Shown piece by piece: positions 1 through 14,336 of a stretch of DNA of 14,336 bases. The position numbers and the translations under genes are program-made. Source of the stretch: a virus. Location of the stretch: the UHGV virus genome UHGV-1706348; one strand, written 5' to 3'. Under the pieces are notes generated by a model, which was not told the DNA's origin, ran no database searches, and saw only the letters and a program-made list of their open reading frames with translations. Position 1 is the stretch's first letter, and each line of letters begins with the position of its first letter.

Positions 1-45
1 GATTGCCTCTTGTCTCGTGGGCTCGGAGATGTGTATAAGAGACAG
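1..45. other. Library adapter contamination (Nextera i7 side): tail of P7 (gat), 8-nt index TGCCTCTT, GTCTCGTGGGCTCGG, then the 19-nt Tn5 mosaic end AGATGTGTATAAGAGACAG
   Basis: Read directly: positions 12-45 are GTCTCGTGGGCTCGGAGATGTGTATAAGAGACAG, the Nextera transposase read-2 adapter; positions 4-11 (TGCCTCTT) fit an i7 index as it appears in the adapter (N711 from memory). Genomic sequence starts at 46. Confidence 0.9.
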
Positions 46-528
46 CTTTTCTTCCTCGGTAGCCATATCTAAATCGACAGCATCCTGCAGCGTGGCAATG
101 ATTTCACCTGCATATGCAATCTGCTCTTTCTTCTGAGACTCCGCCGCTCTGACAAGCGCATCACGCTCTGCATTCTCATCATTCACCCACGCATTTCCGT
201 TCCATTTCTGATAATCCCCCTCCGGGGAAATGGCTGTCACGTCTGGAGGTAATGCGCCAAGTTCAGAAATATAAATGGCTGCTCCCGTTTTCGTTTCGTA
301 GACAGTCTTTCCGCGATGATCTTCCATCAACTCCCATTTCATTTCATCTGCATTGAAAACGGCTGCATAACCAGCAGGAATATCAGGTGGTGCAATATCT
401 GTACTGTTTGCAGGCAGGCCAGTATACGGCGGAATATATGCATCACTTTCGCCAATAAACTCATTGGTTCCATCAAGTAAATTGAAAACGCGGATAGTTT
501 GTGCTTCTGCACTCATTCTGAAAGCCAT
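46..528 (-). CDS. tfa: Tail fiber assembly protein (chaperone), lambda Tfa-like; 3'-partial, truncated by contig end and adapter
   Basis: My translation from ATG at 528 reads [59 protein letters not shown]...[14 protein letters not shown], close to the lambda Tfa N-terminus as I recall it ([54 protein letters not shown]...). Start ATG overlaps the tail fiber stop by 1 nt (TAATG). Frame runs open to position 46, where adapter begins. Confidence 0.85.
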
Positions 529-3146
529 TATGCAAGCCTCACAATATAGTTAAATGCGATGTTTTTGACGGTGTTTTCGGTATTACCAGTAGCATTTACG
601 GTAATGGAATGCCCGTGTGAGCCAATAGCAACAGTGTGTGAATGTGCACCAATACCAACAGTATGGTTATGTGCTCCAATGTCGACTGTATGTGCATGAT
701 TGCCTGATGAACTTGTAGTCGTAGCACCTTTATCACTTCGCGGAACACCATAATCTGCACCGCCTGATTGCACGCTCACAGCAAAACCGACGGTATGTGT
801 ATGATTGCCAGAAGTATTGGTTGATTTTGTGCCGTGGTTAAACGTACTGACTGTTTTTGTCCCGTAATCAAATGAACTGGTCGTTTTCGTTCCTAAGTCC
901 GTATTTGACGCACTGGCGCTGTGAGTATGCGATTTAATCCCGTCCTGTTCCTGTGACAATACGGCACGCCCACTGGCGGGTTTGCCCTTGATTGTCCAGC
1001 CGCGCATATCAGGAATAACACCAGAAGGATAGGCAATAGCCAGTTTCGGATATGCAGCCTTATCAAACGTCTGCCCCTGCATGATCGCATAGCCTGCAGG
1101 TGGTGTATCTGATGGCCACGGCAGCGGAACACCTGGCGGAAACGCTTCAATATTTGCCGAGCCGTCAAATTTTACGCCGTTAATTGTCCTTGGCGTTTTC
1201 AGCTTTGTAGCTGTAGCCGCATTGCCGGACAGTTCGCCTGAAATACCGGCGCTGAAGGTTTGTTTCGCCGCCCATGTCTGAGCTTCGTCGATAATTGGCA
1301 CACGTCTTGTCGTGATCGTGCGGCTTCCCGGATTTCCTGAAATACGCACCATAAAAAAGCGGTAATTCGCTTTACTTACAGTGCTGCGCCATACATGCAT
1401 TGAGCGCCCCGTACCGGAATCATCACTCGGACCAACTGCGATGTTTATCAGGTTGCCATCAATGACGCCCCAGTCCATACCGTCGGGAATGTTGGTCATG
1501 TTATCAAGCCGAACGGTTATCAGACTGCCCGGCACAAAGTCGTGGGTCTGCCAGTCCAGGCTGGTGAGCTTTGCCACTGCACCGCCGATACCCAGATTCA
1601 GGGGAAGTGAATACGAGGTGTAGACTTCCCGCCATTCGCTCCACGAGCTGCCGGTATAGACGCGCTCAAACGTGCGACCTTTAAGGGTTGCACCTGTTCC
1701 GGCAGTTGTATAACGCTGCCATACGTTAACACCATCAAAGCGCCTCAACACTTCCAGAATACCGAGGACTGTCACGCCGTTTCCGTCCAGTATTGGACCG
1801 TTGGTCGCTTTACCTGTAACGCTGTAAATACCTGGTGAAGTCACATCATTCAAATCCCCGTCGTAATAACGACTCTCTGACTGATGACCGACTCTTAACC
1901 ACGGTTCCCACTGCGGATTTGATGCATCCCAGCTTGCCGCAAGGCAGCGGACATACATATTTCCACGGCGAGTGGTATAACGTTGCGTTCTTCCATAATT
2001 CCCGCCTTCGAGGATCTCAAGCGTCCCCTGAGCAAAGCCGCCTTCCTCTGGATAATTGCGTTCATATGAAGCTATAGCCGAGCTACTGTTACGCCATAAA
2101 CCAAGATGTTCGGCAGCTCCAAGCGTATTCAGGTCTATAGTCGTACTCAAAGGGCGGGTAGCTGATTGAGTGTGACGCCATACGCCCCATGGACCATCAG
2201 TACCATTCCACTTATTGGCGAGTTTACGCATGTATACATTGCCGTCTCTCGTGATAAAGCGTTGCGTGCCTGCAAAATTGCCGGCAGCAAAAACCTCAAG
2301 CACACCGACAGCATTATCTTCCGGGAAATTTTTCTCCAGTGTTGCGTTAGTTGAGGTAGCTTTAGACCAGCTCCCCAGATAAGCCTTAACTGGACCAAAT
2401 GTATTCAGATCAGCATCAACCGGCATTTCGCCGTTGTTTTTCATAAACGTCAGGCTGGTAACGCCAACATTGTCCAGAAAAGCTGATTTATCCTGGATAT
2501 CTGCACCGTTCTGATTTTTCGCCAGACGTGAATTTGCGTTGTCATTCGCAGCCTTGACCGCTTTTGGCGTTGCCGCCAGTTTTTCACTGGTGCTGTTTGT
2601 TGCGCTGCTTAACTGGGTAAAACCTTTTTCTGTCAGCGTGGCGTCAGGATGGCGGCGGGACTGCTCATGTTCTGCGATTTTGTCATCGACGTAATCCTGC
2701 GTCGCCATCACTGTGCTGGCATCAATACTCAGCTCAACGGACGCCACGTTACTGACAATAATAACCATGCGACAGGTCTGCGCACGCCCGGAGCCTTCAG
2801 CGAGTTCAGGCTTATAGCTTTCTGCCATGTTGGCGACCGCAATCAGTGTTCCGGCATCGTCATACAGACCAAGCTCACGCATCCAGAAGCCGCCCACTTC
2901 GGGCGGTACAACCAGTTCAGCCACGATATAGTTTTTATTCTTGTTATCCACGCTGACTTTATTCAGAGCGTGACGCCAGACCTCATGCACCAGTTTCGTC
3001 TGACCGGCATCCGGCACCGGCAATTTGCCATTACCGTCACCCACGGCCATTGCAGACAGGTTTACTTTTTTCCCGCCGGGGACAGTGGCGGCTGCCAGCT
3101 TTGCGGCTCCGGCAGTAGTGATAACGGTTTTAAATTTCGTGCTCAT
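528..3146 (-). CDS. H: Tail fiber protein (872 aa): P2 gpH-like N-terminal domain, triplicated shaft repeat, lambda Stf-like His-x-His C-terminal tip
   Basis: Complete ORF in the track. N-terminus [21 protein letters not shown]...[31 protein letters not shown] is P2 H-like; C-terminus ...[58 protein letters not shown] is lambda side-tail-fiber-like. Sits between the baseplate genes and tfa. Confidence 0.9.
597..932 (-). repeat. His-x-His motif repeats in the tail fiber C-terminal tip (aa 739-850), preceded by GTKT repeats
   Basis: Motifs [42 protein letters not shown] read from the translation. Coding repeats, not CRISPR. Confidence 0.6.
1617..2330 (-). repeat. Three diverged ~58-aa tandem protein repeats (~91-aa period) inside the tail fiber shaft (aa ~273-330, 364-422, 455-510)
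   Basis: Aligned by eye: [53 protein letters not shown] / [56 protein letters not shown] / [52 protein letters not shown]. Nucleotide identity between copies is only moderate, so the duplication is old. Confidence 0.6.
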
Positions 3147-3156
3147 TGTTTCTCAC

Positions 3157-3687
3157 TTATCCGGGATAAACAGTAATAACATCACCATCACAGACCACAC
3201 CGCCTGTATACAGACAGCCGGGAATGTCCTGGATAATGTTCAGACCGATAAGGTGGCGACTTGCGGGTTTGGCATCGGCAATCAGCCGTTCCATTTCCAG
3301 ATACATCTCCTCCGTGATGCCGCTTTCCAGTACGCCGATATCAAGGCGGAAGGTTCCGGGCGGGTCGTTTGTCTCCCACCATTCCTTTACGTGAATGAGA
3401 TAGCCGAGCGGCTCCACCACACGCCGGATTGCGCCGACAGTGCCTTTATGACAATGAATGAAATAGGCATCGCGGATAACGGCGCGTTTTGTCGCTTCCG
3501 GCCACTTTTCATCCCACCTGTCGACCGAAAACGCCCACGCCAGCCACGGCAGCAGATTTGCCGGACAGGAGTCCGGGTTCCACAGCTCACGAATACTGAC
3601 CGGCGTTTTTTCAATTTCCGCACAGGCTTTTGCGGCAGCGACTTCAAGCGGTGATGAGCCGGTCGGCAGCAGTCGCGAATCACTCAT
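3157..3687 (-). CDS. I: Baseplate assembly protein I (P2 gpI-like), 176 aa
   Basis: Complete ORF, same length as P2 gpI, positioned between J and H; start overlaps the J stop by 8 nt. Confidence 0.85.
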   Translation of the reverse strand: MSDSRLLPTGSSPLEVAAAKACAEIEKTPVSIRELWNPDSCPANLLPWLAWAFSVDRWDEKWPEATKRAVIRDAYFIHCHKGTVGAIRRVVEPLGYLIHVKEWWETNDPPGTFRLDIGVLESGITEEMYLEMERLIADAKPASRHLIGLNIIQDIPGCLYTGGVVCDGDVITVYPG

Positions 3688-4588
3688 CCGAGCCTCCGGT
3701 CACGACGCGGTATTCGGTACAGAAAGACGCCTGCGTACTGTTGAGCACGATGTCGGCCAGTGGTGCAGCCAGTTCGACACGCTGCACGCCTTCCACATGC
3801 AAAGCGGCATAAATGGCAGACAGACGGATGTCACGCCCCAGCCGGTGCTGTGCCGTGATATACGCTTCCAGTTTTTTCACGGCGGCAGCGCGAATGGGTT
3901 CGCTTTCGGGACCAGGGTAAAGGTAAAGCGTGGCGTTTATCTGGTATTCAACGATGGCGGCAGACTGCACAGTCACGCGGTCGGCCACCGGCCTGACATC
4001 CTCGCCATTAAGGGCGTTACGTACCACAGCCAGCAGGTCTTCGGATGCGACACCATTATTCTCACGTGACAGCACAGAGATGGTGACGCAGGCCGGAGAC
4101 GGACTGGTGACAGAGATATCCGCGACACGCCCGTCGGCACTGCGGCCATGATACTGATAGGCACCCACCGACCCGGCGACGCTTAAACCTTCAAACGCCT
4201 GCTGAATACGCAGACGATAATCGGTGTCAGATTCCATCACTGCCGGTGTCGGCGGAATGGTCGAATCATCTGCCGGGGTGATAATCAGGCGTGTGGTGTT
4301 GTAATTGGCACCAATCACATCAAGGTCATTACCGGCTGCACAGGCCAGCATCACCGCCCGTGCGGCCTCATTCACACGCTGACGCCAGATAAGCTCACGA
4401 TAAGCATTTTCCTCCAGCAGTTTAACGAGAGGCTCAGATTCCAGCGTCAGGGTACGGGCGACCGCCTCCTGCTGGTCTTCCGGGTAAAGGGAAATCAGTG
4501 TCGCCTTGCGTTCAGCGAGAATGGTTTCAAAGTCCAGCTCCTCGACCACATCCGGTGCGGGTAGCTGGTTCAGGTCGATAATCGGCAT
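3680..4588 (-). CDS. J: Baseplate assembly protein J (P2 gpJ-like), 302 aa
   Basis: Complete ORF beginning MPIIDLNQLPAPDVVEELDFETILAERKATLISLYPE..., same length as P2 gpJ, sits between W and I. Confidence 0.88.
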   Translation of the reverse strand: MPIIDLNQLPAPDVVEELDFETILAERKATLISLYPEDQQEAVARTLTLESEPLVKLLEENAYRELIWRQRVNEAARAVMLACAAGNDLDVIGANYNTTRLIITPADDSTIPPTPAVMESDTDYRLRIQQAFEGLSVAGSVGAYQYHGRSADGRVADISVTSPSPACVTISVLSRENNGVASEDLLAVVRNALNGEDVRPVADRVTVQSAAIVEYQINATLYLYPGPESEPIRAAAVKKLEAYITAQHRLGRDIRLSAIYAALHVEGVQRVELAAPLADIVLNSTQASFCTEYRVVTGGSDE

Positions 4589-4592
4589 GGTT

Positions 4593-4940
4593 TCAACTCA
4601 CAGGGATGGTTAATGAAAGTGGCTGGCCGGTGTCGTTGTGCTGGCCGGTTAACGTGACCGTCATTCGCCCGTCAAAACTGCGCTCAGTGATGACGGATGA
4701 CAGGGTGACGCGGGGTTCCCATTTCAGCACCGCCATGTAACAGGCGACCTTAATCTGCAACTCAAGCGCCGGGGTCTGCGGCTGGTCAATCATTGACGCC
4801 AGCAACGAGCCGTAATCACGACGCATCACCCGTGAGCCGACCGGCGTGCGCAGGATATCGCCGATACTCTGGCTGATATGCTCAAGGTCAGTGACAGTCA
4901 GGCCATCACTGCGATTCATTCCGAGATAACGCGCTGTCAT
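4593..4940 (-). CDS. W: Baseplate assembly protein W (P2 gpW / T4 gp25-like), 115 aa
   Basis: Complete ORF of P2 gpW size; ATG overlaps the V stop as ATGA (4937-4940). Confidence 0.85.
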   Translation of the reverse strand: MTARYLGMNRSDGLTVTDLEHISQSIGDILRTPVGSRVMRRDYGSLLASMIDQPQTPALELQIKVACYMAVLKWEPRVTLSSVITERSFDGRMTVTLTGQHNDTGQPLSLTIPVS

Positions 4941-5572
4941 AAAGGCCTCCCGGTTGTGCCGCCGCTGTCGCCGGGGTGTTTATGGGTATGCAGTACCTTA
5001 CCGTTTGATGAGAGTTCACCGCCGGTATGTTCAATGTTGCCGCGCATCGTCCCGCCCTTCTGCACTTCCAGCGTGCCGGTGATCAGCTTGTTTGTGCAGA
5101 CCACCTCCGGCGTGTCCAGAGTGACACGGGTTGATGCTTTCACCGTGACCACCGGCACCGTGGCAGTAACAGAATCAGAAGCCGTCACGCTGGCCGTTTT
5201 AATTCCGCTTACCGTGAGTGCACTGGTTTCAGGTTCATACTCAATCACCGCCCCGTCAGGGAAACGGATATGCAGGGCATCCGCCGACGCAGACGGCGCG
5301 GGGTTATCACCGGAATAAATCCCCGGCAGAACAAACGCCGTGTCGAGTTCACCGCCCACGGACAGAATCAGCACCTGTTCCCCCACGGAAGGTGCCCACC
5401 ATGTGCGCGAACGTCCGGCGCGATGGGTCAGCCACTGAAGCCAGTCGGTGCACATGCCGCCGGTCTGCACACGGCAGCGACCGGCGTTAAGGTCGGTTTC
5501 AACGATAATGCCGGTGCGGATCATGTTGCGCAGTGCGCGCGCGAGTTCCTGAATATTTGCGAGAGTGTTCAT
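4937..5572 (-). CDS. V: Baseplate spike / assembly protein V (P2 gpV-like), 211 aa
   Basis: Complete ORF of P2 gpV size, first gene after the S-V intergenic gap; C-terminal part is Gly/His-rich (...KVLHTHKHPGDSGGTTGRPL). Confidence 0.85.
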   Translation of the reverse strand: MNTLANIQELARALRNMIRTGIIVETDLNAGRCRVQTGGMCTDWLQWLTHRAGRSRTWWAPSVGEQVLILSVGGELDTAFVLPGIYSGDNPAPSASADALHIRFPDGAVIEYEPETSALTVSGIKTASVTASDSVTATVPVVTVKASTRVTLDTPEVVCTNKLITGTLEVQKGGTMRGNIEHTGGELSSNGKVLHTHKHPGDSGGTTGRPL

Positions 5573-5584
5573 AACGGGAAGGAT

Positions 5585-5606
5585 GCCGCCGGGTCATACC
5601 GGCGGC
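5585..5606. promoter_or_regulatory. Perfect 8-bp GC-rich inverted repeat (GCCGCCGG-gtcata-CCGGCGGC) in the 66-bp S-V intergenic region
   Basis: Read directly from the sequence. No U-tract follows on either strand, so it is not a canonical intrinsic terminator. In P2 this position lies upstream of V, where a late promoter is expected. Confidence 0.5.
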
Positions 5607-5638
5607 AATGTGACGATGAGGTGTCGGGAATGGCACAA

Positions 5639-6091
5639 CTAACGGTCGAGATGAGCCAGGATAATCTCTTCAATCATCTGCACATCCTCACCGGTAAAGC
5701 CGAGCAGAGGACGCGCCGGATAATCAATTTTCTTACCGTCTTTCCGGGTTTCTTCCGACAGACCGAACTGATGCACGCTGGCGATTTTCGGTGACTTCCC
5801 GCCGTAAAATTCCATTGATGCCTGTTCCGGGCTGGCGCGGATATGCAAAAAGCGACTGGTAATAAGTTTCGCAAACATTTTTCGCTTAACACGACCGGTC
5901 TTTTTTTTGGCGCTCTGCTGCTGGCGTGGCGCGTAGGGTGTGCCGTCCGGGGCTTTCTGTGCCATCACCCGACGCTGCTGACTCTGTCGCAGACGTTTTG
6001 CCAGTTCGGCACTCAGTCGCCGACGCCCTGACGGTGACAGCGATTCAGTCAGTCCGGTCAGCCGGTCTTCAAAACGCTTAAACTCATTCAT
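5639..6091 (-). CDS. S: Tail completion / virion morphogenesis protein S (P2 gpS-like), 150 aa
   Basis: Complete ORF of P2 gpS size and position; start overlaps the R stop by 8 nt. Confidence 0.8.
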   Translation of the reverse strand: MNEFKRFEDRLTGLTESLSPSGRRRLSAELAKRLRQSQQRRVMAQKAPDGTPYAPRQQQSAKKKTGRVKRKMFAKLITSRFLHIRASPEQASMEFYGGKSPKIASVHQFGLSEETRKDGKKIDYPARPLLGFTGEDVQMIEEIILAHLDR

Positions 6092-6551
6092 CCCACTTGC
6101 TCACCAGTTCGCCATTGATATACAGCTCCATCGGGCGGGTGACCGGCTCCGGCGGCGGAGGTTCCGGGATATTCTTCACATGCAGTGCGCCGTCCACCTC
6201 ACTGACCAGCGTGCGCTCGGTCAGCATCAGGCTGATGCTGATATCAAAGCTGCTGTCATTGTTGATGTCTGCATAAAACGTGAAGCCCTTTTTCTGGCCT
6301 TCGTCGGTGGTCATGATGTCGGGCTGATTTTCCCGCAGCCACGCCAGCACCGGCACGATGAGCAGGTCAAAATCACCGGTAAAGTCGGTCACAATGACAT
6401 TGAGCGTGTAACGCTTTTCGAATGACAGCGACGTCGCCAGTGTGGAGGCAATACTCCCGTTATCCACGAATATCCGCAGCATCTCGGGGCTGGTTTTCAG
6501 CACCGTGACGGCATCAGTCAGTGCCCTGCGCAGGCTGTCGGGTTTGAGCAT
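6084..6551 (-). CDS. R: Tail completion protein R (P2 gpR-like), 155 aa
   Basis: Complete ORF of P2 gpR size, immediately after the lysis cassette. Confidence 0.8.
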   Translation of the reverse strand: MLKPDSLRRALTDAVTVLKTSPEMLRIFVDNGSIASTLATSLSFEKRYTLNVIVTDFTGDFDLLIVPVLAWLRENQPDIMTTDEGQKKGFTFYADINNDSSFDISISLMLTERTLVSEVDGALHVKNIPEPPPPEPVTRPMELYINGELVSKWDE

Positions 6552-6804
6552 CGTTTTCGTCCTGACAGTGTTTAATCATTTTTACCTGGCTGGCACAACG
6601 TGCCAGCGCGTTCTCAAGCTGCCGGATATCGGCACTTAAATCGCCGTTCGTCTGCGGGTCACTGCCCGGCATCGGGCAAAGACTCACTTTCGGGCAGGCG
6701 TTGTGGACAATCACTGGCGTCGGTGCAGGCCGGACGCTGGTGCAACCGGCGCACAGCATCAGGCAGGTCAGCGCCGTACCAGCGGCGAAAATCTTCGTTT
6801 TCAT
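6514..6804 (-). CDS. lysC: Outer-membrane spanin lipoprotein (Rz1-like; P2 LysC-like), 96 aa, out of frame with and overlapping lysB
   Basis: Translation MKTKIFAAGTALTCLMLCAGCTSVRPAPTPVIVHNACPKVSLCPMPGSDP...: signal peptide, lipobox-like LCAGC, Pro-rich mature region. Overlaps the 3' end of lysB (6659-6804) and the 5' end of R. The exact start is uncertain. Confidence 0.7.
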   Translation of the reverse strand: MKTKIFAAGTALTCLMLCAGCTSVRPAPTPVIVHNACPKVSLCPMPGSDPQTNGDLSADIRQLENALARCASQVKMIKHCQDENDAQTRQPAQGTD

Positions 6805-7084
6805 TCAGTAACCTCGTGATGGTTTTCTCGCGCTGTGCTTCACGCTTCGCCGCGTTCTCCAGTTCCTGACGCAGTGCCACCTGCGCCAGCTCGTTTTTGT
6901 CTGCTCTGGTGAGGGCAACATGAAGCTGATTTTTCAGCATGGTGATGGTCGTCTGCTGCCCGCTGGCGACGTTGTTCGCCCTGTCCAGCGAGGTGCGCAG
7001 GCTGGCGTTTTCATGCTTCGCCAGAAACAGACCGGCCACCGCCAGTGATAACAACACAACCAGCACAATCATCAGCTTTGACAT
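6659..7084 (-). CDS. lysB: Inner-membrane spanin (Rz-like; P2 LysB-like), 141 aa
   Basis: N-terminal transmembrane segment MSKLMIVLVVLLSLAVAGLFLA followed by a charged, probably coiled-coil region (QLHVALTRADKNELAQVALRQELENAAKREAQREKTITRLLNENEDFRRW); start overlaps the lysA stop. Confidence 0.8.
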   Translation of the reverse strand: MSKLMIVLVVLLSLAVAGLFLAKHENASLRTSLDRANNVASGQQTTITMLKNQLHVALTRADKNELAQVALRQELENAAKREAQREKTITRLLNENEDFRRWYGADLPDAVRRLHQRPACTDASDCPQRLPESESLPDAGQ

Positions 7085-7497
7085 GGTTCCCGCCCCTCAA
7101 AACGCTGACGACAGGCCGTGCGTATCAACCGGAAGAACACCGACGCCACGAGGTAAATCAGCGCGGTAAAAATCCACCCGGCAGCGACCAGCGAGATAAA
7201 CGTCGCCACCATCACCACCAGAGCCGCCGCCCGTCTGCGCCACGGCACCGGCTGCAAAAACAGCGACGCGACAATCTTCACGGCCAGCGATTCCGGCGGC
7301 AGCTCCCGCCCGTAGCGTTCCAGCACATACTCAGTGGCATACACGCCGACACCACCGGCAACCACACAGATAACCGTCGCCAGAATCGCCCAGGCGGCGA
7401 CAAAACTGACGGCCACGCTCTGCGGGTAAATCAGGGACAGTGCCAGCATCAGCGCCAGCGACACGTTCAGCATCAGTGAAAGGGATAATTTCTTCAT
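7072..7497 (-). CDS. lysA: Lysis timing membrane protein LysA-like, 141 aa, multi-pass hydrophobic
   Basis: Highly hydrophobic translation with several predicted TM segments, located between K and lysB as in P2. Confidence 0.7.
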   Translation of the reverse strand: MKKLSLSLMLNVSLALMLALSLIYPQSVAVSFVAAWAILATVICVVAGGVGVYATEYVLERYGRELPPESLAVKIVASLFLQPVPWRRRAAALVVMVATFISLVAAGWIFTALIYLVASVFFRLIRTACRQRFEGREPCQS

Positions 7498-7511
7498 GGT
7501 GTTTACTCCGT

Positions 7512-8009
7512 TTAAGCCGGTACGCCGCCAGCGGTACGCCAGACGGTGACCAGTTTTTCCAGTGAATGCTCACGCTGACCGTAACCGGCACCCGGCAGGG
7601 ACGCCCAGATATTGCGACAGCGTGAAATGGCGCGCTCAATGCGTCCCGCCCGGATGTCATCCAGTGCACCGCGTTCGCGGATCAACTGAATGGCGAGCCT
7701 GTCCTGTGACAACGGACTGAAATCCGGCAGGGCAAGCTGTTTGCGGTAATGCGGCCAGAACAGGTAAAGCTGCTGATAGCGCCCGGAGGCCGTGGATTTT
7801 TCACCGCGACGGTTAAACACCTTCGCCGGTCGGCCATGCGCGAACGGGTGGTCACTGTAGTCAGTGAAAATTTCCGGCTTCCCGTCCAGTCCGGTGACTA
7901 TCACGTCATAGCCCCGGTTTTTCGTCAGCGGATGATTCGCCGTCCCTTCGGACACGGCCAGCATGTCGAGAAAGGCGGCGATATTCTGATGCGTGTTAAT
8001 TACCGGCAT
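7512..8009 (-). CDS. K: Endolysin, lambda R-like (lytic transglycosylase family), 165 aa
   Basis: Translation MPVINTHQNIAAFLDMLAVSEGT...RGYDVIVTG...FTDYSDHP...GRYQ...FSPLSQD...RCRNIWASLPGAGYGQREH aligns by eye with lambda R as I recall it (AFLDMLAWSEGT...HGYDVIVGG...FTDYSDHP...GRYQ...FSPKSQD...RCSNIWASLPGAGYGQFEH). Start overlaps the Y stop (TAATG). Confidence 0.9.
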   Translation of the reverse strand: MPVINTHQNIAAFLDMLAVSEGTANHPLTKNRGYDVIVTGLDGKPEIFTDYSDHPFAHGRPAKVFNRRGEKSTASGRYQQLYLFWPHYRKQLALPDFSPLSQDRLAIQLIRERGALDDIRAGRIERAISRCRNIWASLPGAGYGQREHSLEKLVTVWRTAGGVPA

Positions 8010-8290
8010 TACTGTTTCCCCCTGCCCTTAAAGCGGCGCTGAATGGCAATCTCAATCACCTGATAACCGGCGATACCCAGCATGGAGCCGATGCCGCACA
8101 CCGCAGGCAGTGACAGGTCAGGAAACTGCACCAGAACAACACCGGCAACCATCGAGACAAAACCACCGAGCAACATGCGCCCGATAAACAGACGCGGGGT
8201 GATGGGTTCACCACCGGCAAGCACCTTGCCGACAACAATCAGCACCCCAATCATGAAAAGCGACAGGACGCTTTTTTCTTCTGCTGTCAT
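8009..8290 (-). CDS. Y: Holin (P2 gpY-like), 93 aa
   Basis: Small protein with hydrophobic TM segments and a charged C-terminus (RRFKGRGKQ), immediately upstream of the endolysin. Confidence 0.8.
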   Translation of the reverse strand: MTAEEKSVLSLFMIGVLIVVGKVLAGGEPITPRLFIGRMLLGGFVSMVAGVVLVQFPDLSLPAVCGIGSMLGIAGYQVIEIAIQRRFKGRGKQ

Positions 8291-8293
8291 GCG

Positions 8294-8497
8294 TTACTCC
8301 CACAGATTGACAGTTTCAGCCACGGGCGCGGTCTGAACGTCGGGCAGTTCGACGGCGGTGCCGTGTGGCAGCACCGCACCCAGTTCAGCCAGTCCCGGAT
8401 TTGCGGCGAGCACGGTCTCAACCACGCCCTCAGTGCGCCCGTAATACCGGACACAGATGGCGTCGAGCGTGTCGCCCTGTAGCGCAAAGGTCTTCAT
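8294..8497 (-). CDS. X: Tail protein X (P2 gpX-like, LysM-like), 67 aa
   Basis: I place the start at the internal ATG (MKTFALQGDTLDAICVRYYGRTEGVVETVLAANPGLAELGAVLPHGTAVELPDVQTAPVAETVNLWE), not at the 90-aa track ORF, because this gives the 67 aa I recall for P2 X and a 1-nt stop/start overlap with L (TGATG). Confidence 0.72.
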   Translation of the reverse strand: MKTFALQGDTLDAICVRYYGRTEGVVETVLAANPGLAELGAVLPHGTAVELPDVQTAPVAETVNLWE

Positions 8498-9006
8498 CAG
8501 ATTTGACTCACGATGCAGCGCGGCTTGTCCTGGATACGCGCCACCGCCCAGCGCATATCCCGCCACAGCTCATCAATAGTGCTGTCAATGCTGTCGGCCT
8601 TCTTGTCGCCTTTCGCACTGGCATCCACGCCGCGATAACGCTCATAAAGCGACGCGGTCGCCATCGCACACACGGCGCGCTCGTAGTAAAAAACCTTGAT
8701 GCTTTCACCGTCGATATCGTCCGCCGGGACGTCAGCCAGACGCGTAAAACCGGCGGCAATTTTCTGTTCGCGGTACTCGTACAGCTCCGCATTCGTCTCC
8801 GCCATGCCTGACTTGATGGCCTCACGCAGACGGGCGGGGGCGACGGTCTGCTCAAGGCGCATACGTTCCCGGACGCGCTTCGGGTCGATATCGGGAAAAA
8901 AGAACGTGTTTTTAATCACCGGCTCGTCGCCTGCCGGTTGCGGGATGACCACCGTACCCTCACCGGACACGGGAGCCTCCTTTCGCGGAATAATCAGCGT
9001 CATCAT
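8497..9006 (-). CDS. L: Head completion / stabilisation protein L (P2 gpL-like), ~169-170 aa
   Basis: Start placed at the ATGATG at 9006/9003 (MMTLIIPRKEAPVSGEG...), preceded by GAGG; the 189-aa track ORF extends upstream into untranslated spacer. Confidence 0.8.
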   Translation of the reverse strand: MMTLIIPRKEAPVSGEGTVVIPQPAGDEPVIKNTFFFPDIDPKRVRERMRLEQTVAPARLREAIKSGMAETNAELYEYREQKIAAGFTRLADVPADDIDGESIKVFYYERAVCAMATASLYERYRGVDASAKGDKKADSIDSTIDELWRDMRWAVARIQDKPRCIVSQI

Positions 9007-9105
9007 GACTACCTCAGAAAAGTCGGGCGGTGGACGCCGGTACAGTGTCAGGTGATTCACCCACACTGACCGGCGTGCCGCCCTGGCGCGGGGCGCATTC
9101 GGTTG

Positions 9106-9849
9106 TTAACTGGCTTTCTTTTTCGGGCGTCCACGTTTTGCCGGTGTCGCACTCCGGGTCTTACGCGGGGCACGGGTGGCCGCTTTGGGCTGCGGCTCCG
9201 GCTTCGGTTTCAGCTCCCGCTCCAGTCGTTCAATCTCTTTTTTGACGCCTGCCTGACAGTCGAGCTGTGTCGCACGTTGCAGGTGCGCCAGCGCACCGGC
9301 GGCATCACCAGCGTCACGCAGAAACAGACCGGTGATTTTGTGCAGCTTTGCGCGCACTTCATCAGGCATGTCAGCCGTGGCGGTCAGTTCAAGGGTGTCC
9401 GTCAGCAGGCGGGGATTCACAGACTCACCGGCAGCGTGAGCGCGCATGGCCGCAAGCGCCACCTCCTCGGTGAACATGTACGGCGGGGTGCGGCGGTGTT
9501 TACCCGGCATGGTCAGACCGTACTTCAGGGCATAACGGGCAATCTCCAGCGCACCGGCAATATCGCCGGTATCCAGACGCCACAGCATGACCGTCATCAG
9601 AATGTCATCCTGTGCACCTTTGCCCTGCTCCAGCACGCCGTTCACCCACGGCAACCAGAACGGCAGCAGTTCGCGTTTTTTCGCGGCCTTCAGCTCTTTT
9701 GAATAAATCGCTTTCAGTGTGCGCTGGTCTGCGGCGAGCTTAACCAGCATCTGCTCATAGACAGTTGCATGTCGCAGCGGGGCGGCTTCCCGCTGCGCGG
9801 TCATCGCTGCCGAGACCCGCATCATGTGGCGCTGTGCGGGACTCGTCAT
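9106..9849 (-). CDS. M: Terminase endonuclease (small) subunit M (P2 gpM-like), 247 aa
   Basis: Complete ORF of P2 gpM size, with a basic Lys/Arg/Pro-rich C-terminal tail (...KPKPEPQPKAATRAPRKTRSATPAKRGRPKKKAS), located right after the capsid gene. Confidence 0.85.
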   Translation of the reverse strand: MTSPAQRHMMRVSAAMTAQREAAPLRHATVYEQMLVKLAADQRTLKAIYSKELKAAKKRELLPFWLPWVNGVLEQGKGAQDDILMTVMLWRLDTGDIAGALEIARYALKYGLTMPGKHRRTPPYMFTEEVALAAMRAHAAGESVNPRLLTDTLELTATADMPDEVRAKLHKITGLFLRDAGDAAGALAHLQRATQLDCQAGVKKEIERLERELKPKPEPQPKAATRAPRKTRSATPAKRGRPKKKAS

Positions 9850-9852
9850 CGG

Positions 9853-10926
9853 TTACGCTCCCGGCTCTGCGGTCGCCCTGGCCGGTGTGGAGAAATCACC
9901 GACCTTAATTTTTTCCACCAGGCAACCGGCGGCGTAGTCTTCCACCACGTAATCAATATTCATTGACTCGTAGTTCTCCACGCGGTCGAGTTTCGGGTTT
10001 TCCTCAATCACGCGGCGATGGCTGTCATCCATGTAGTAGATGGACAGGTTTTCCAGCTTCGTGATGAGCATCGCATCCGCCGGGAAGTACGGGACGCGTA
10101 CCGCTGGCAGGTTGCCGATGCGTTTCTGGCTGATGATGACGTCAGCGGCCAGCATCTCGCTGTTGTCCTGCTCCTTGTTGACGATGGGGAAATACTTGTC
10201 CGCCAGTAGCTGACGCCCCACAATCACCACAAGGTCAGGGTCTTCCTGATACCACGGTTCAATCAGGTTGTTGGTCGCATCCATCACCAGTGCATCAAGG
10301 CTGGCATAATCACCGCCCTTACCCACGCGGATAACCTCAGAGGTGGTGCGGCCTTCCTCGTCAGTGACCTTGCTCATCACGCGCGCCGGGGCTTCATTGC
10401 GGTATTTCTGCAGCCAGCCGACCGCCACATCCTGCAACATCGGATTGCTGCTGCGGTCAGAGGTTTCGGCACGCTTCACGCCGTTAAAACCGGCCATGAT
10501 GAAATCAAGGGACTGGCGTTTGATAATGGCGTTACGGATACGGAGCTGGAAATCCTGATAACGCGCCCACAGGTCCAGCGTTTTGTAGCGGATATAAAAA
10601 TCGAAGTTAATCTGGTCGCATTCGTACTTGTTTGACGCCAGCTTCGAGAAGTCCTTCGGCTGACGTTCGGTGCCACCGGCGGTGTCGGTGGTGCTGGCGA
10701 TGGAGCCGGTGACACCGATGCCAATTTTTTCCCCTTTCATTTCGCTGACCGGCACAATGTTGATGCGGGTCAGAAAGTCAGAGGACTCCTGCATGGTGTT
10801 CATCAGGGTCTGGGTGACCGACGGTTCAACGGTGAATTTTTTCGACACATCACCGGCGTCGATGCCGTTCAGTTCGGCAACACGGGACAGATAGGCATTA
10901 AATTTAAAACGGGTTTCCTGGCGCAT
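9853..10926 (-). CDS. N: Major capsid protein N (P2 gpN-like), 357 aa
   Basis: Complete ORF of P2 gpN size, between scaffold and small terminase; AGGA Shine-Dalgarno 6 nt upstream of the ATG. Confidence 0.9.
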   Translation of the reverse strand: MRQETRFKFNAYLSRVAELNGIDAGDVSKKFTVEPSVTQTLMNTMQESSDFLTRINIVPVSEMKGEKIGIGVTGSIASTTDTAGGTERQPKDFSKLASNKYECDQINFDFYIRYKTLDLWARYQDFQLRIRNAIIKRQSLDFIMAGFNGVKRAETSDRSSNPMLQDVAVGWLQKYRNEAPARVMSKVTDEEGRTTSEVIRVGKGGDYASLDALVMDATNNLIEPWYQEDPDLVVIVGRQLLADKYFPIVNKEQDNSEMLAADVIISQKRIGNLPAVRVPYFPADAMLITKLENLSIYYMDDSHRRVIEENPKLDRVENYESMNIDYVVEDYAAGCLVEKIKVGDFSTPARATAEPGA

Positions 10927-10984
10927 ATTTGTTCCTGAAATTAAGGGTTAATCGTGAAGGTTTTCCCGGACTGACTGACGCCGG

Positions 10985-11839
10985 TCAGCAGTTCGTCATC
11001 AGGGCGTCTCCGCCACCGCCGGTGGCCTTGCTGCGGCGCTGCTGGGTCAGACTTTCGGTGTGGTCGAGACTGTTTTTCAGGCGGGTGAATGCCTGGCTGG
11101 TTTCATCCGCCCTGTCAGTCACATCCTGCTTAAGTGCGGAAAAGGCGGTTTCCATCTCAGCGAGGCGCTGCTCAGTGGCGCTCAGTTTTTCCTGCACATG
11201 TTCAGCAACAGCGGTCACCGCTTCATGCACATCATTCAGACGGGCGTCATCACTGGCCTGTTTGCGACCAAAAATGGATTTCACCTTTTCGGTCAGGGCG
11301 GTGAACACGGTTTCAGGCAGGTCTTCAAATTCCAGCTCAACGGGCGTTGCCACTGAAATCAGGTTTTCAGGGCTTAATTTGAAGCGGTTCAGGGGGTTGT
11401 GTTTTGCCTTGCGGCAGAATTCCAGGTATTCCGTGCCGAGGCTCGCCGGGTCGTCGGTGACGGCCAGACCCACCAGATAACATTTGCCGGTATTGGCAAA
11501 GTTCGGCTGAATTTCCATTGAGGTGTAGACCTTCTGCGCGGCCTTGTTCATCGCGATAAGGTCATCGGTCGGGGTGATTTTCGCAAACAGCGCCCATTTG
11601 CCTTTCAGCGCCGAATCGTCGTCAATCTTTTCGGCCTTCAGTTCGACCACATCGCCATAACGTTTAAAAATACCGTCAGGCAGGATGCCGCGCAGATGTT
11701 CCAGGTTAATGCGGCAACCATAGACACGCGGGTCAAAGGTTTCGGCCATTTCCTGAATATCCTGCGCACTGATGACACGCCCGTCACAGGTGTCACCCTC
11801 AACGCCGATACGAAAGAATTTTGAGACTTTTTTTGCCAT
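10985..11839 (-). CDS. O: Capsid scaffolding protein O (P2 gpO-like), 284 aa plus initiator Met
   Basis: Start placed at the internal ATG giving MAKKVSKFFRIGVEGDTCDGRVISAQDIQEMAETFDPRV..., not the 306-aa track ORF; C-terminal half is helical and charged (...SATEQRLAEMETAFSALKQDVTDRADETSQAFTRLKNS...). Confidence 0.85.
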   Translation of the reverse strand: MAKKVSKFFRIGVEGDTCDGRVISAQDIQEMAETFDPRVYGCRINLEHLRGILPDGIFKRYGDVVELKAEKIDDDSALKGKWALFAKITPTDDLIAMNKAAQKVYTSMEIQPNFANTGKCYLVGLAVTDDPASLGTEYLEFCRKAKHNPLNRFKLSPENLISVATPVELEFEDLPETVFTALTEKVKSIFGRKQASDDARLNDVHEAVTAVAEHVQEKLSATEQRLAEMETAFSALKQDVTDRADETSQAFTRLKNSLDHTESLTQQRRSKATGGGGDALMTNC

Positions 11840-12012
11840 TGTCAGGAGTCCTGAATAGTGATTAGAGGAGTCACATGTCGGCATCAGTTTCCCGACGATG
11901 CGCATCCTCCGCCATCAGTCCCGGATGGCTTATCACTGACACAACAGCACCTTAGCGAATCGCGGGGCGCGACTCAGTAGCCTTGCCGTGTATTCATCAC
12001 GGCGAGGTATTC
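11840..12012. promoter_or_regulatory. Divergent intergenic region between O (-) and P (+); expected site of the two divergent late promoters of a P2-like phage
   Basis: 173-bp non-coding gap between divergent operons. P2 has Ogr-dependent late promoters here with a TGT-N12-ACA element near -55; I find no perfect copy, only TGG-N12-ACA at 11926-11943. A 6-bp inverted repeat GCCGTG-tattcat-CACGGC (11985-12003) abuts the P Shine-Dalgarno (GAGG 12004-12007). Confidence 0.45.
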
Positions 12013-13785
12013 ATGACCATCACCACAGACACCACTCTTTTACACGACCCGCGTCGTCAGGCGGCGCTGCTGTACTGGCAGGGGTTTTCCGTGCCGCAGA
12101 TTGCCGCCATGTTGCAGATGAAACGTCCGACGGTGCAGAGCTGGAAACAGCGCGACGGCTGGGACAGTGTTGCCCCCATCAGCCGTGTCGAAATGAGCCT
12201 GGAAGCGCGGCTGACCCAGCTCATCATCAAACCGCAGAAAACCGGCGGTGACTTCAAGGAAATTGACCTGCTGGGACGCCAGATTGAACGACTGGCACGG
12301 GTCAACCGCTACAGCCAGACCGGCAACGAGGCAGACCTTAATCCGAACGTCGCTAACCGCAACAAAGGCGGGCGGCGCAAACCGAAAAAGAATTTTTTCA
12401 GTGACGAGGCCATCGAAAAGCTGGAGCAGATTTTCTTTGAGCAGTCTTTCGAATATCAGTTGCACTGGTATCGCGCCGGGCTTGAGCACCGCATCCGCGA
12501 TATCCTGAAATCCCGCCAGATTGGCGCGACGTTTTATTTTTCCCGCGAGGCGCTGCTGCGTGCCCTGAAAACCGGTCATAACCAGATTTTTCTGTCGGCC
12601 AGTAAAACGCAGGCGTATGTGTTCCGCGAATACATCATCGCCTTTGCCCGTCTGGTTGACGTTGACCTGACCGGTGACCCGATTGTCCTGGGCAATAACG
12701 GCGCAAAACTGATTTTTCTCGGCACCAACTCCAACACCGCGCAGAGCCATAACGGCGACCTGTACGTCGACGAGATTTTCTGGATCCCGAATTTTCAGGT
12801 ACTGCGTAAGGTGGCATCAGGTATGGCCTCACAGAGTCACCTGCGCTCGACCTATTTCTCCACCCCGTCCACGCTGGCGCACGACGCCTACCCGTTCTGG
12901 TCAGGTGAACTGTTCAACCGGGGACGCGCCAGCGCCGCCGAACGCGTGGAAATCGACGTCAGTCATAACGCCCTTGCCGGTGGGCTTCTCTGTGCGGACG
13001 GCCAGTGGCGGCAGATTGTCACCATTGAGGACGCCCTGAAAGGTGGCTGCACGCTGTTCGACATTGAGCAGCTCAAACGTGAAAACAGCGCCGACGATTT
13101 TAAAAACCTGTTCATGTGTGAATTTGTTGACGACAAGGCGTCAGTGTTCCCGTTCGAGGAGCTGCAACGCTGCATGGTCGACACGCTGGAAGAATGGGAA
13201 GACTATGCGCCGTTTGCCGCGAATCCGTTCGGCTCCCGCCCGGTATGGATTGGTTACGACCCGTCACACCGTGGCGACAGTGCCGGATGCGTGGTGCTGG
13301 CACCGCCGGTGGTGGCCGGTGGCAAATTCAGAATACTTGAGCGTCACCAGTGGAAAGGCATGGACTTTGCCACTCAGGCGGAATCCATCCGCAAACTCAC
13401 CGAAAAATACAACGTCGAATACATCGGTATTGATGCCACCGGCCTCGGTGTCGGCGTGTTCCAGCTCGTGCGCTCGTTCTATCCCGCCGCGCGCGATATC
13501 CGCTACACACCGGAAATGAAAACCGCAATGGTGCTCAAGGCAAAAGACGTTATCCGCCGTGGCTGTCTGGAATATGACGTCAGCGCCACCGACATCACCA
13601 GCTCGTTTATGGCTATCCGCAAGACCATGACCAGCAGCGGACGCAGCGCCACCTATGAGGCCAGCCGCAGCGAGGAAGCCAGCCACGCCGACCTCGCCTG
13701 GGCGACCATGCACGCCCTGTTAAATGAGCCACTCACCGCCGGTATCAGCACCCCGCTGACATCCACCATTCTGGAGTTTTACTGA
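12013..13785 (+). CDS. P: Terminase ATPase (large) subunit P (P2 gpP-like), 590 aa
   Basis: Start placed at ATG 12013 (MTITTDTTLLHDPRRQAALLYWQGF...) with GAGG upstream, not the TTG-initiated 600-aa track ORF. Stop TGA (13783-13785) overlaps the Q ATG by 1 nt. Confidence 0.9.
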   Translation: MTITTDTTLLHDPRRQAALLYWQGFSVPQIAAMLQMKRPTVQSWKQRDGWDSVAPISRVEMSLEARLTQLIIKPQKTGGDFKEIDLLGRQIERLARVNRYSQTGNEADLNPNVANRNKGGRRKPKKNFFSDEAIEKLEQIFFEQSFEYQLHWYRAGLEHRIRDILKSRQIGATFYFSREALLRALKTGHNQIFLSASKTQAYVFREYIIAFARLVDVDLTGDPIVLGNNGAKLIFLGTNSNTAQSHNGDLYVDEIFWIPNFQVLRKVASGMASQSHLRSTYFSTPSTLAHDAYPFWSGELFNRGRASAAERVEIDVSHNALAGGLLCADGQWRQIVTIEDALKGGCTLFDIEQLKRENSADDFKNLFMCEFVDDKASVFPFEELQRCMVDTLEEWEDYAPFAANPFGSRPVWIGYDPSHRGDSAGCVVLAPPVVAGGKFRILERHQWKGMDFATQAESIRKLTEKYNVEYIGIDATGLGVGVFQLVRSFYPAARDIRYTPEMKTAMVLKAKDVIRRGCLEYDVSATDITSSFMAIRKTMTSSGRSATYEASRSEEASHADLAWATMHALLNEPLTAGISTPLTSTILEFY

Positions 13786-14291
13786 TGAGTAAGAAAAAAG
13801 GGAAAACACCGCAACCTGCGGCAAAAAAAATGACCGCCAGCGCCCCGAAAATGGAGGCATTCACCTTTGGTGAGCCGGTGCCGGTACTCGACCGCCGTGA
13901 CATTCTGGATTACGTCGAGTGCATCAGTAACGGCAGATGGTATGAGCCGCCGGTCAGCTTTACCGGTCTGGCGAAAAGCCTGCGTGCTGCCGTGCATCAC
14001 AGCTCGCCGATTTACGTCAAACGCAATATTCTGGCCTCGACATTTATCCCGCATCCGTGGCTTTCCCAGCAGGATTTCAGCCGCTTTGTGCTTGATTTTC
14101 TGGTGTTCGGTAATGCGTTTCTGGAAAAGCGTTACAGCACCACCGGTAAGGTCATCAGACTGGAAACCTCACCGGCAAAATATACCCGCCGTGGCGTGGA
14201 GGAGGATGTTTACTGGTGGGTGCCGTCCTTCAACGAGCCGACAGCCTTCGCGCCCGGCTCCGTGTTTCACCTGCTGGAGCCGGATATCAAT
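13785..14291 (+). CDS. Q: Portal protein Q (P2 gpQ-like), 3'-partial (first ~169 aa), truncated by contig end and adapter
   Basis: Translation MSKKKGKTPQPAAKKMTASAPKMEAFTFGEPVPVLDRRDILDYVECISNGRWYEPPVSFTG...; downstream of and coupled to P as in P2. The last residues of the track ORF (LSLIHI-stop) are encoded by adapter, not genome. Confidence 0.85.
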
Positions 14292-14336
14292 CTGTCTCTT
14301 ATACACATCTGACGCTGCCGACGAATAGAGAGGTGT
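14292..14336. other. Library adapter contamination (Nextera i5 side, reverse complement): mosaic end CTGTCTCTTATACACATCT, GACGCTGCCGACGA, 8-nt index ATAGAGAG, GTGT
   Basis: Read directly: 14292-14324 is CTGTCTCTTATACACATCTGACGCTGCCGACGA, the reverse complement of the Nextera read-1 adapter; 14325-14332 (ATAGAGAG) is the reverse complement of CTCTCTAT (i5 index 502 from memory); GTGT begins the P5 tail. Confidence 0.9.

Follow-up and report, generated by a model that had tools for sequence, protein, structure and literature searches.

Predicted module structure of the tail fiber and chaperone in the host-recognition locus of a P2-like Escherichia coli prophage

The fiber locus and its P2-like surroundings

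The window analyzed here, a 14,336-nucleotide stretch of viral DNA (UHGV virus genome UHGV-1706348), carries Nextera adapter sequence at both ends (positions 1-45 and 14292-14336). Positions 46..14292 were aligned to the chromosome of E. coli 1217KP as a single collinear match with 98.1% identity and at most one gap column. The late genes follow the order V-W-J-I-H-G as in phage P2 (NC_001895), and collinearity of the window with P2 extends from Q to H, with 92-98% DNA identity upstream of the fiber gene. The backbone aligns to P2 at 98.0% and 91.8% DNA identity, and similarity then ends at position 2541 (H codon ~202). The flanking late genes are intact and their open reading frames (ORFs) have the lengths of those in P2, which, together with the collinearity, bears out the statement of an earlier sequence-only reading that all other genes in the window are P2-like in length and order.

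The fiber gene lies directly after the gpI homologue (3157..3687) and is followed by a tail fiber assembly (Tfa) gene, the same operon position and fiber-then-chaperone pairing as gpH and gpG of P2 (Table 1). At 872 aa, the fiber exceeds P2 gpH (669 aa) by 203 aa, close to the difference of about 200 aa given in the sequence-only reading. The start codon of Tfa overlaps the fiber stop codon by one base (ATG and TAA, at 528). The Tfa frame can be read to base 46, and the residues past ...ATEEEK are encoded by the adapter; the last 31 residues, beyond the insert, were therefore taken from the 99.4% identical 1217KP copy. GC content drops to 44-46% in the fiber tip, and a drop was also seen in Tfa. 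Promoter-like and terminator-like sites in 1..3400 were at or below the expectation from shuffled sequence, with no sign of an internal regulatory element. Three antisense ORFs within the fiber gene (2649..3176, 1381..1623, and 1835..2077, all on the + strand) had no PHROG family match and were treated as chance ORFs.

Table 1. Coordinates of the fiber and chaperone features in the window
Feature	Fiber residues (aa)	Position in window	Strand	Basis or remark
Tail fiber gene (P2 gene H position)		528..3146	-	Uninterrupted ORF, 872 codons + stop
Module A, P2 H-type N-terminal region, presumed baseplate attachment	1-207	2526..3146	-	Identity to P2 H 1-207
"Phage tail fibre repeat" PF03406, first module junction	170-211	2514..2639	-	PF03406, E=4.2e-21
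Module B, putative shaft of knob-like beta domains	226-631	1254..2471	-	Tandem repeats aa 245-323 (2178..2414) and aa 337-416 (1899..2138)
Conserved linker motif (31 residues), second module junction	636-666	1149..1241	-	PhiR44_2 alignment, megablast
Module C, predicted receptor-binding tip, T4 gp37 / lambda Stf class	667-872	531..1148	-	2XGF match; tip similarity from about aa 653
Tip apex, presumed receptor-contact loop, between HxH motifs 2 and 3	785-816	699..794	-	Aligns with T4 gp37 "tip subdomain" 932-959
Tail fiber assembly gene Tfa (P2 gene G position)		46..528	-	First 161 of 192 codons, MAFRMS... start, cut by insert end

Modules of the fiber and branch of the chaperone

The fiber was mapped by BLASTP and sliding-window identity, by Pfam domains (PF12571, PF03406, PF07484, and PF02413), and by matches to PDB entries 2XGF, 5YVQ, and 8JU3. 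Comparing the fiber by region and Tfa with known phages, and tabulating identity per region, as the sequence-only reading had proposed, gave a map of N-terminus, shaft, and tip. The BLASTP matches of the fiber and Tfa parts are not due to chance (E from 1e-75 to 1e-109), and the reading frame is unbroken across both module junctions. A search of NCBIfam returned no match for the fiber or Tfa. On these comparisons the fiber is best described as three modules, a P2 H-type N-terminus, a shaft of putative knob domains, and a T4 gp37 / lambda Stf-class tip. The sequence-only reading had proposed a P2 H-like N-terminus fused to a lambda Stf-like tip; both parts were recovered, but the ~450 aa between them, left uncharacterised there, make up a third module.

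P2 H and the fiber share 84.5% identity over the N-terminal 207 aa, in agreement with the first ~200 aa having been called P2 H-like, and BLASTP against P2 H found no similarity past aa 207. PF12571 (phage tail-collar fibre) was matched at aa 1-151 (2694..3146) with E=6.4e-58 and 195 bits against a cutoff of 23. Across the repeat at the first junction, identity to P2 H drops while identity to phage 613R2 climbs. This repeat is 67.5% identical to aa 355-394 of lambda orf-401 by BLASTP and also matches fibre S of phage Mu in 5YVQ and 8JU3. By anchor and gene position, not by tip, the fiber is assigned to the P2 gpH type; compared with P2, its tip is of another class and the N-terminal domain of its Tfa is unrelated to that of G.

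The shaft is common to ~25 Peduovirus isolates, one non-P2 myovirus, and one T-even gp37, and the extra length of the fiber is attributable to this module, which many Peduovirus isolates share. Its two tandem repeats (K1 and K2) are significantly similar to each other by Smith-Waterman alignment with shuffles (z=29.7). The same procedure gave no significant repeat similarity for domains K3 and K4, BLASTP of the shaft against itself gave no output, and Pfam at E<=10 gave no match in the shaft. An AlphaFold2 (AF2) monomer model of the shaft was of moderate confidence (pLDDT 64.7) and, among other phage fiber domains, matched the R1/R2 pyocin fibres. Only domain-level matches of this model were used; its global superposition TM-score is low (about 0.2), as the positions of its domains with respect to one another are arbitrary. 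The knob domains of R-type pyocin fibers (PDB 6CL5, 6CL6, and 6CU2) share 17-19% identity with the shaft in this moderate-confidence comparison, and the shaft falls in no Pfam or NCBIfam family.

At the second junction, the H protein of PhiR44_2 is identical to the fiber through ...ATKLKT and divergent after it, and megablast similarity to ~25 Peduovirus genomes ends at query nt 1955 (aa ~652). In JK23 gp37, the same motif precedes the shaft module. At both junctions, then, the modules appear to meet in a conserved linker motif found again in many phage fibers, the most likely place for recombination.

In the tip, a collar domain (PF07484) was found at aa 672-719 (990..1133; 40.6 bits against a cutoff of 24), and the T4 gp37 tip structure 2XGF was matched with E=6e-77. 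Identity is 57% to T4 gp37 over aa 636-872 and, over aa 658-872, 58% to lambda orf-314, which corresponds to the C-terminal portion of Stf. The description of the fiber end as lambda Stf-like holds as far as orf-314 is concerned, but T4 gp37 is equally close and its solved structure covers the tip. Among the last 40 residues, 37 match T4 and 33 match lambda. Six HxH motifs (aa 740, 782, 817, 826, 835, and 844) align, as motifs alone, with those of T4, which has one more (seven); lambda has eight, with an apex of 45 residues against 32 here. From these homologues an intertwined trimeric needle with metal (iron) held at the HxH motifs is predicted. T4 gp37 therefore shares the collar, the needle motifs, and the near-identical C-terminal 40 residues with the present fiber, and differs in an unrelated apex and in its chaperone, gp38 (28% identical to Tfa).

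Tfa was matched by PF02413 (Caudo_TAP; E=1.5e-22, 80.5 bits against a cutoff of 22.1) and by phrog_105, "tail fiber assembly" (E=1e-73), and is 99.4% identical to the 192-aa Tfa of both 1217KP and Peduovirus P24A7b (NC_049390). The fragment in the window shares 64-65% identity with lambda Tfa in a 160-aa BLASTP alignment, whereas P2 G is matched in a single stretch of 39 aa (44%); the C-terminus aligns with P2 G at 39% over 99 aa. The N-terminal ~120 aa align only with the chaperones of lambda, 613R2, and Chlobot and with T4 gp38, and the C-terminal ~70 aa align also with P2 G and Mu U. The chaperone had been read as lambda Tfa-like and not as P2 G, and the short, C-terminal match to P2 G agrees with this. 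Of two chaperone branches, Tfa belongs to that of lambda.

Relatives and distribution of the allele

Several named systems share parts of this gene pair. N-terminus, collar, and needle are the same in the isolated P2-like phage P24A7b, and its Tfa is near-identical; its shaft is only 35-75% identical, and its apex has been replaced. Lambda Stf and Tfa (Ur-lambda; orf-401 + orf-314, and orf-194) correspond to the tip and chaperone at the identities given above. The last 206 aa of the Stf of the lambdoid phage Chlobot are 95% identical to the tip, apex included, and its Tfa is 65-67% identical overall, with the divergence mostly C-terminal. In lambda and Chlobot these are side fibers of siphoviruses with another N-terminal attachment. 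A literature search found no mention of phage Chlobot.

The unit of tip plus Tfa was described in 2022 by Magaziner & Salmond as a family of >200 phages (PMC9659904). Members of that family (for example PhiNP ORF6) are homologous only in their last ~215 aa, diverge chiefly around the T4 specificity region, and are followed directly by a Tfa gene (PMC9659904). The present tip is likewise homologous through its last ~215 aa, with the collar and a conserved C-terminal sequence of 15 residues; the tip and Tfa share 75% DNA identity with PhiNP, and the present Tfa falls in the lambda/PhiNP/SEN5 branch (PMC9659904). By this comparison the tip is a further member of the family, carried on a P2-type fiber, with no difference in kind.

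The whole fiber is 99.7% identical along its length to WP_488913226, the H protein of the P2-like prophage in 1217KP (3 of 872 residues differ), and the same Tfa lies downstream. The 1217KP and ST131 prophages (WP_488913226 and WP_142439888) have the same gene pair and flanks, a complete Tfa of 192 aa, and fibers that differ at 3-12 of 872 residues by point substitutions only. The block is held by 98 of 5,426 complete E. coli genomes, ST131 included, from humans, poultry, swine, and dogs on several continents. The sequence-only reading had taken the fiber and chaperone as the part most likely to differ functionally from known relatives, and had allowed that a uniform match to a single P2-family H protein with its own downstream gene would make them an ordinary variant. 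The locus is indeed the sole part of the window that departs from P2, yet the 1217KP prophage provides just such a uniform match. Given this match and the 98 genomes, the locus is a common P2-family allele and not a new junction: the combination is an established allele circulating in E. coli prophages and already catalogued. The canonical P2 H and G genes were themselves reportedly described as horizontally mosaic in a 1992 paper (Haggard-Ljungquist).

Viewed against canonical P2 alone, with the abrupt stop of similarity at H codon ~202 and a lambda-like gene downstream, the fiber could be taken for a recent or unique recombinant of a P2-like phage and a lambdoid prophage, with a new junction and a host range unseen in known relatives. 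Among isolated named phages none matches the whole fiber uniformly, the best being P24A7b at 76%. This reading is very improbable and is refuted by the 3.1-kb block, which is matched from end to end at 97.9-99.5% identity in the best 25 of the 98 E. coli genomes; moreover, the 1217KP fiber differs at so few positions and each junction is present in other phages. The adapters that bound the window raise the further thought of an assembly or library artefact joining P2-like and lambdoid fragments. The end-to-end collinear alignment with the 1217KP chromosome, the same junctions in many independent complete genomes and phage isolates, and the intact frame over both junctions leave this explanation with almost no probability.

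A decaying prophage remnant is suggested by the PGAP/RefSeq annotation of the locus as three "incomplete" pseudogene fragments in AR_0089 and others. It is nevertheless very unlikely, as the ORF is uninterrupted in the window, AR_0089, ST131 isolate 46, and 1217KP (no internal stop, 3-12 substitutions) and none of the flanking late genes is broken or departs from its P2 length. Given the uninterrupted ORF, the fragmented annotation is a labelling artefact for a mosaic protein. An invertible segment with an alternative tip, of the Mu/P1 type, was also considered and dropped; complete relatives have neither an invertase nor a second tip/Tfa pair downstream.

The apex and the proposed function of the unit

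The 32-residue apex is the most variable stretch among relatives by sliding-window identity, and it shares about 5 of 32 residues with P24A7b (counted from the alignment). Of the 5,426 E. coli genomes, 61 contain the 228 nt around the apex (657..884); among isolated phages, Chlobot alone does. Alignment of the apex with T4 gp37 932-959 showed no conservation. In T4, this tip subdomain carries the residues that contact LPS and OmpC (I933, N937, G938, G940-G943, K945, S947, Y949, I951, and Y953; PMC6957217). Lambda Stf resembles gp37, both bind OmpC (PMC12617516), and the lambda and T4 tips have been proposed to enter the central cavity of the OmpC trimer (PMC6957217, PMC12617516). P2 binds the LPS core.

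Because the apex is unlike those of T4 and lambda, both OmpC binders, sequence comparison does not point to a particular receptor. The scaffold of collar and needle, 57-58% identical to both of these proteins, and the proposed fit of their tips to the OmpC cavity would be consistent with a tip that binds OmpC, with or without LPS core, as do T4 gp37 and Ur-lambda Stf. We regard this as doubtful: the T4 contact residues sit in the apex, which has no detectable similarity here, members of the tip family diverge precisely in this stretch (PMC9659904), and P24A7b bears a wholly different apex on the same scaffold. The latter difference suggests that the apex is the part swapped to change receptor. 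A more novel reading, of less than even probability, is that the apex acts as a distinct specificity cassette and would direct this P2-like phage and Chlobot to a receptor different from OmpC or the K-12/B LPS core; a candidate would be, for example, a surface structure typical of the ExPEC lineages that carry the allele.

Overall, the unit is very probably the host-recognition module of a P2-like (Peduovirus) E. coli prophage, consisting of a trimeric fiber with three exchangeable modules and its chaperone. The P2 H-type N-terminus (aa 1-~207) would fix the fiber to the P2 baseplate, as its homology and gene position suggest, and the knob-like beta domains (aa ~226-631) would supply its length. 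With 57% identity to the solved T4 tip as a guide, the tip (aa ~653-872) is predicted to form a collar and a needle held by metal at the six HxH motifs, with the apex loop contacting the receptor. Tfa is probably translationally coupled to the fiber gene. In Mu Tfa, a modular mechanism has been described in which the N-terminal domain binds the tip and the C-terminal helices drive trimerisation (PMC9608196). By analogy, the N-terminal domain of the present Tfa may bind the tip and its conserved C-terminal helices may drive trimerisation; the N-terminal domain co-varies with tip class, as a tip-binding role predicts. Modules would be exchanged by recombination at the two conserved linker motifs. 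Homologues are the basis for predicting that the fiber trimerises, binds metal, and attaches to the baseplate and that Tfa acts as its chaperone.

Units of fiber plus chaperone set phage host range and are swapped by phage and tailocin engineers; published constructs include lambda-P2 chimeric stf genes and a fusion of P2 H with gp37 from the T4-like phage S16. The locus illustrates no principle that was not known before, and its allele can already be found in public genomes. It is a clean natural example of a P2 anchor that carries a shaft also present in T-even phages and other myoviruses and a tip that lambdoid phages have as well. In practical terms, what it offers is the apex alone, which differs from that of every characterised relative and may be of interest where ST131-type strains are studied. 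If the apex is indeed a specificity cassette, the P24A7b apex and the present one, on one scaffold, would form a natural minimal receptor-switch pair for engineering.

Layout of the window and ends of the insert

The window carries late genes in P2-like order on the minus strand, namely Q (cut), P, O, N, M, L, X, Y, K, lysA, lysB/lysC, R, S, V, W, J and I, followed by the tail fiber (at the position of P2 gene H) and its assembly chaperone, Tfa (at that of P2 gene G). DNA identity to P2 was 98.0% from Q to S (5637-14292) and 91.8% from V into H (2541-5572), and given this step the baseplate operon may have had a different history from that of the head and lysis genes. DNA similarity to P2 ends at window position 2541, at H codon ~202. 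In P2 the S-V interval is occupied by orf30, a non-essential gene of 786 nt on the opposite strand; it is absent here, where the gap spans only ~65 nt (5573-5638); the Peduovirus P24A7b, unlike the window, has a gene at this position. GC content was 44-46% in the fiber tip and chaperone (1-900) versus 55-59% in the baseplate genes (3300-6900), a drop that would be expected for imported DNA. Antisense ORFs in the fiber region had no family match in a PHROG comparison, and promoter and terminator matches in the fiber/Tfa region (1..3400) were at chance level only.

Coordinates of the fiber ORF, Tfa ORF, adapters and family-scan domains (nucleotide positions in the window; aa, fiber residues)
Feature	Position	Strand	Remarks
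Fiber ORF	528..3146	minus	872 codons, uninterrupted
Tfa ORF (MAFRMS...)	ATG at fiber end, down to base 46	minus	161/192 codons present
Nextera adapter	1-45 and 14292-14336		both window ends
PF12571, P2 H-type N-terminal domain	aa 1-151		family scan
PF03406, "phage tail fibre repeat"	aa 170-211		family scan
PF07484, collar domain	aa 672-719		family scan

The adapter consists of CTGTCTCTTATACACATCT plus index-side bases and is reverse-complemented at the left end; the genuine insert is 46..14291. Since adapter sequence begins at base 45 and runs down, the Tfa gene is cut by the insert end. The terminal residues of both end ORFs ("...LSLIHI..."), the tail of Tfa included, are adapter-encoded, which indicates that the contig had not been adapter-trimmed. 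The Tfa ATG and the fiber TAA share one base (window 526-530), and this stop/start overlap suggests that translation of the two genes is coupled.

Modules of the fiber and type of the chaperone

Sliding-window comparison, BLASTP and family scans resolved the fiber into three modules rather than two: a P2 H-type N-terminus (module A, aa 1-~207), a shaft of putative knob-like domains (module B, aa ~226-631) and a receptor-binding tip (module C, aa ~653-872). The sequence-only reading had proposed a two-part chimera of P2 H and lambda Stf, a correct but incomplete account of the architecture. It was correct that the fiber is about 200 aa longer than P2 gpH (872 vs. 669 aa, a difference of 203) and that it begins like P2 H, module A being 84.5% identical to P2 H 1-207 by BLASTP; beyond aa 207, BLASTP returned no P2 H match anywhere in the fiber. 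Between module B and the gp37 protein of JK23, a T-even phage, identity is 60%.

Module C matched the solved T4 gp37 tip (PDB 2XGF) at E=6e-77. The lambda Stf-like character ascribed to it was borne out by 58% identity of aa 658-872 to lambda orf-314, which forms the C-terminal portion of Stf, but the tip lies at the same distance from T4 gp37 (57% identity to residues 785-1026). The last 40 fiber residues are identical to T4 at 37/40 positions and to lambda at 33/40, and six HxH motifs in the tip align with the seven of T4. Both module junctions fall in conserved linker motifs. One is the PF03406 repeat, a motif that Mu fibre S shares and with which lambda orf-401 ends; the other precedes the tip, and the alignment to phage PhiR44_2 is identical as far as this second motif and divergent beyond it.

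The chaperone is of the lambda type and not a P2 G, as had been proposed: in BLASTP the fragment aligned with lambda Tfa over 160 aa at 65% identity and with P2 G over 39 aa only. For its N-terminal ~120 residues, alignable sequences are confined to chaperones of gp37/Stf-class tips (lambda, 613R2, Chlobot and T4 gp38); in the C-terminal ~70 residues P2 G and Mu U are alignable too. This pattern agrees with the modular mode of action reported for Mu Tfa (reviewed in PMC9608196): the part that binds the fiber is an N-terminal domain of variable sequence, and trimerisation is driven by C-terminal helices that are conserved.

Occurrence in phages and prophages

Modules A and B (aa 1-652) were found in ~25 Peduovirus isolates at 87-95% DNA identity (e.g., PhiR44_2, P24C9 and 10W), where, in contrast to the window, they run into a P2-type tip and then a P2 G-type chaperone. 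Module B and a portion of the tip (aa ~160-760) recur at 95-100% identity on the fiber of vB_EcoM-613R2, a myovirus whose 26.6-kb record has a baseplate gene set not of P2 type. The same record (locus L005, 4243-8233) holds a lambda-type Tfa, with a serine acetyltransferase gene just downstream on the opposite strand. Module C and the chaperone are shared with P24A7b (collar and needle 97-100%, Tfa 99.4% identical), but its apex (the 32 residues at aa 785-816) differs, with ~5/32 residues in common. More distant holders of this pair are Salmonella phage STYP1, Citrobacter phage PhiNP, the ESSI2 phages and lambda. In the lambdoid phage Chlobot (gene order J, lom, stf, tfa, int) the last 206 aa are 95% identical, apex included.

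The 3.1-kb block of fiber and Tfa is 99.5% identical to a P2-like prophage of E. coli 1217KP, whose fiber differs at 3/872 residues and is followed by the same 192-aa Tfa; a single P2-family H protein with its own downstream gene is therefore matched throughout, which is the outcome that the sequence-only reading had named as making the fiber an ordinary P2-family variant. Among 5,426 complete E. coli genomes, 98 contain the block (counted where a genome place covers ≥ 80% of it), and this refutes a unique, recent recombinant. Among the best 25 of these 98 genomes, which include several O25b:H4-ST131 strains, identity was 97.9-99.5% over 100% of the block. The adapters at the window ends suggest an assembly chimera, but many complete genomes are collinear with the window, which refutes it; against 1217KP the entire window gave a single collinear alignment at 98.1% with ≤ 1 gap column. 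Intact ORFs in related genomes likewise refute a decaying pseudogene. In several genomes, PGAP/RefSeq splits the fiber locus into three "incomplete" pseudogene features, including AR_0089 (locus L011, 3001-5619), where the 872-codon ORF is intact with no internal stop; since the ORF is intact in those records, the fragmented labelling is an artefact of annotating a mosaic protein.

Taken by itself, the apex stretch (window 657..884) occurs at 75 places in 61 E. coli genomes, some of which carry the allele twice, the second copy probably on another prophage in the same cell and perhaps a lambdoid one. The window stops short of the post-Tfa Z/fun cargo site of P2. At this site, the closest complete relatives, 1217KP (locus L007, 16228-18330) and the ST131 prophage (locus L012, 7228-9101), encode an AAA-family ATPase and a DUF4435 protein, a pair of the kind that constitutes the PARIS anti-phage system; AR_0089 (L011, 6892-7602) encodes a RES-family NAD+ phosphorylase instead.

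Predicted attachment and standing of the locus

Judging from homologues, the N-terminal domain would anchor a trimeric fiber on a P2-type baseplate, the shaft would determine its reach, and the tip would adopt a gp37-type build of collar, metal-stapled needle and apex. The chaperone would bind the fiber through its N-terminal domain and drive trimerisation through its C-terminal helices, as Mu Tfa does. Tip and chaperone together have been defined as the "T4- and lambda-based RBP family" of >200 phages, with homology confined to the last ~215 aa, two chaperone branches and an apex stretch that generally varies between members (PMC9659904). The T4 residues that contact its receptors, LPS glucose and OmpC, belong to the "tip subdomain" 932-959 (PMC6957217), which aligns with aa 785-816 here with zero conservation. 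Because the apex is unconserved relative to T4 and variable in P24A7b and the family, the receptor cannot be inferred from sequence. Lambda Stf and T4 gp37 both use OmpC (PMC12617516). By analogy, OmpC would be a tentative and rather doubtful candidate receptor.

Tail fiber genes were reportedly found by Haggard-Ljungquist et al. in 1992 to be exchanged horizontally between P2 and unrelated phages. Engineered counterparts also exist, both as lambda-P2 chimeric stf genes (PMC11338833) and as P2 H fused to gp37 of the T4-like phage S16 (PMC9594776). The mosaic combination is not new, and the locus adds to known kinds one more member, which had been sequenced before. Judged against sequenced prophages, the fiber is an ordinary allele of the P2 family; relative to phage P2, it is still a chimera.
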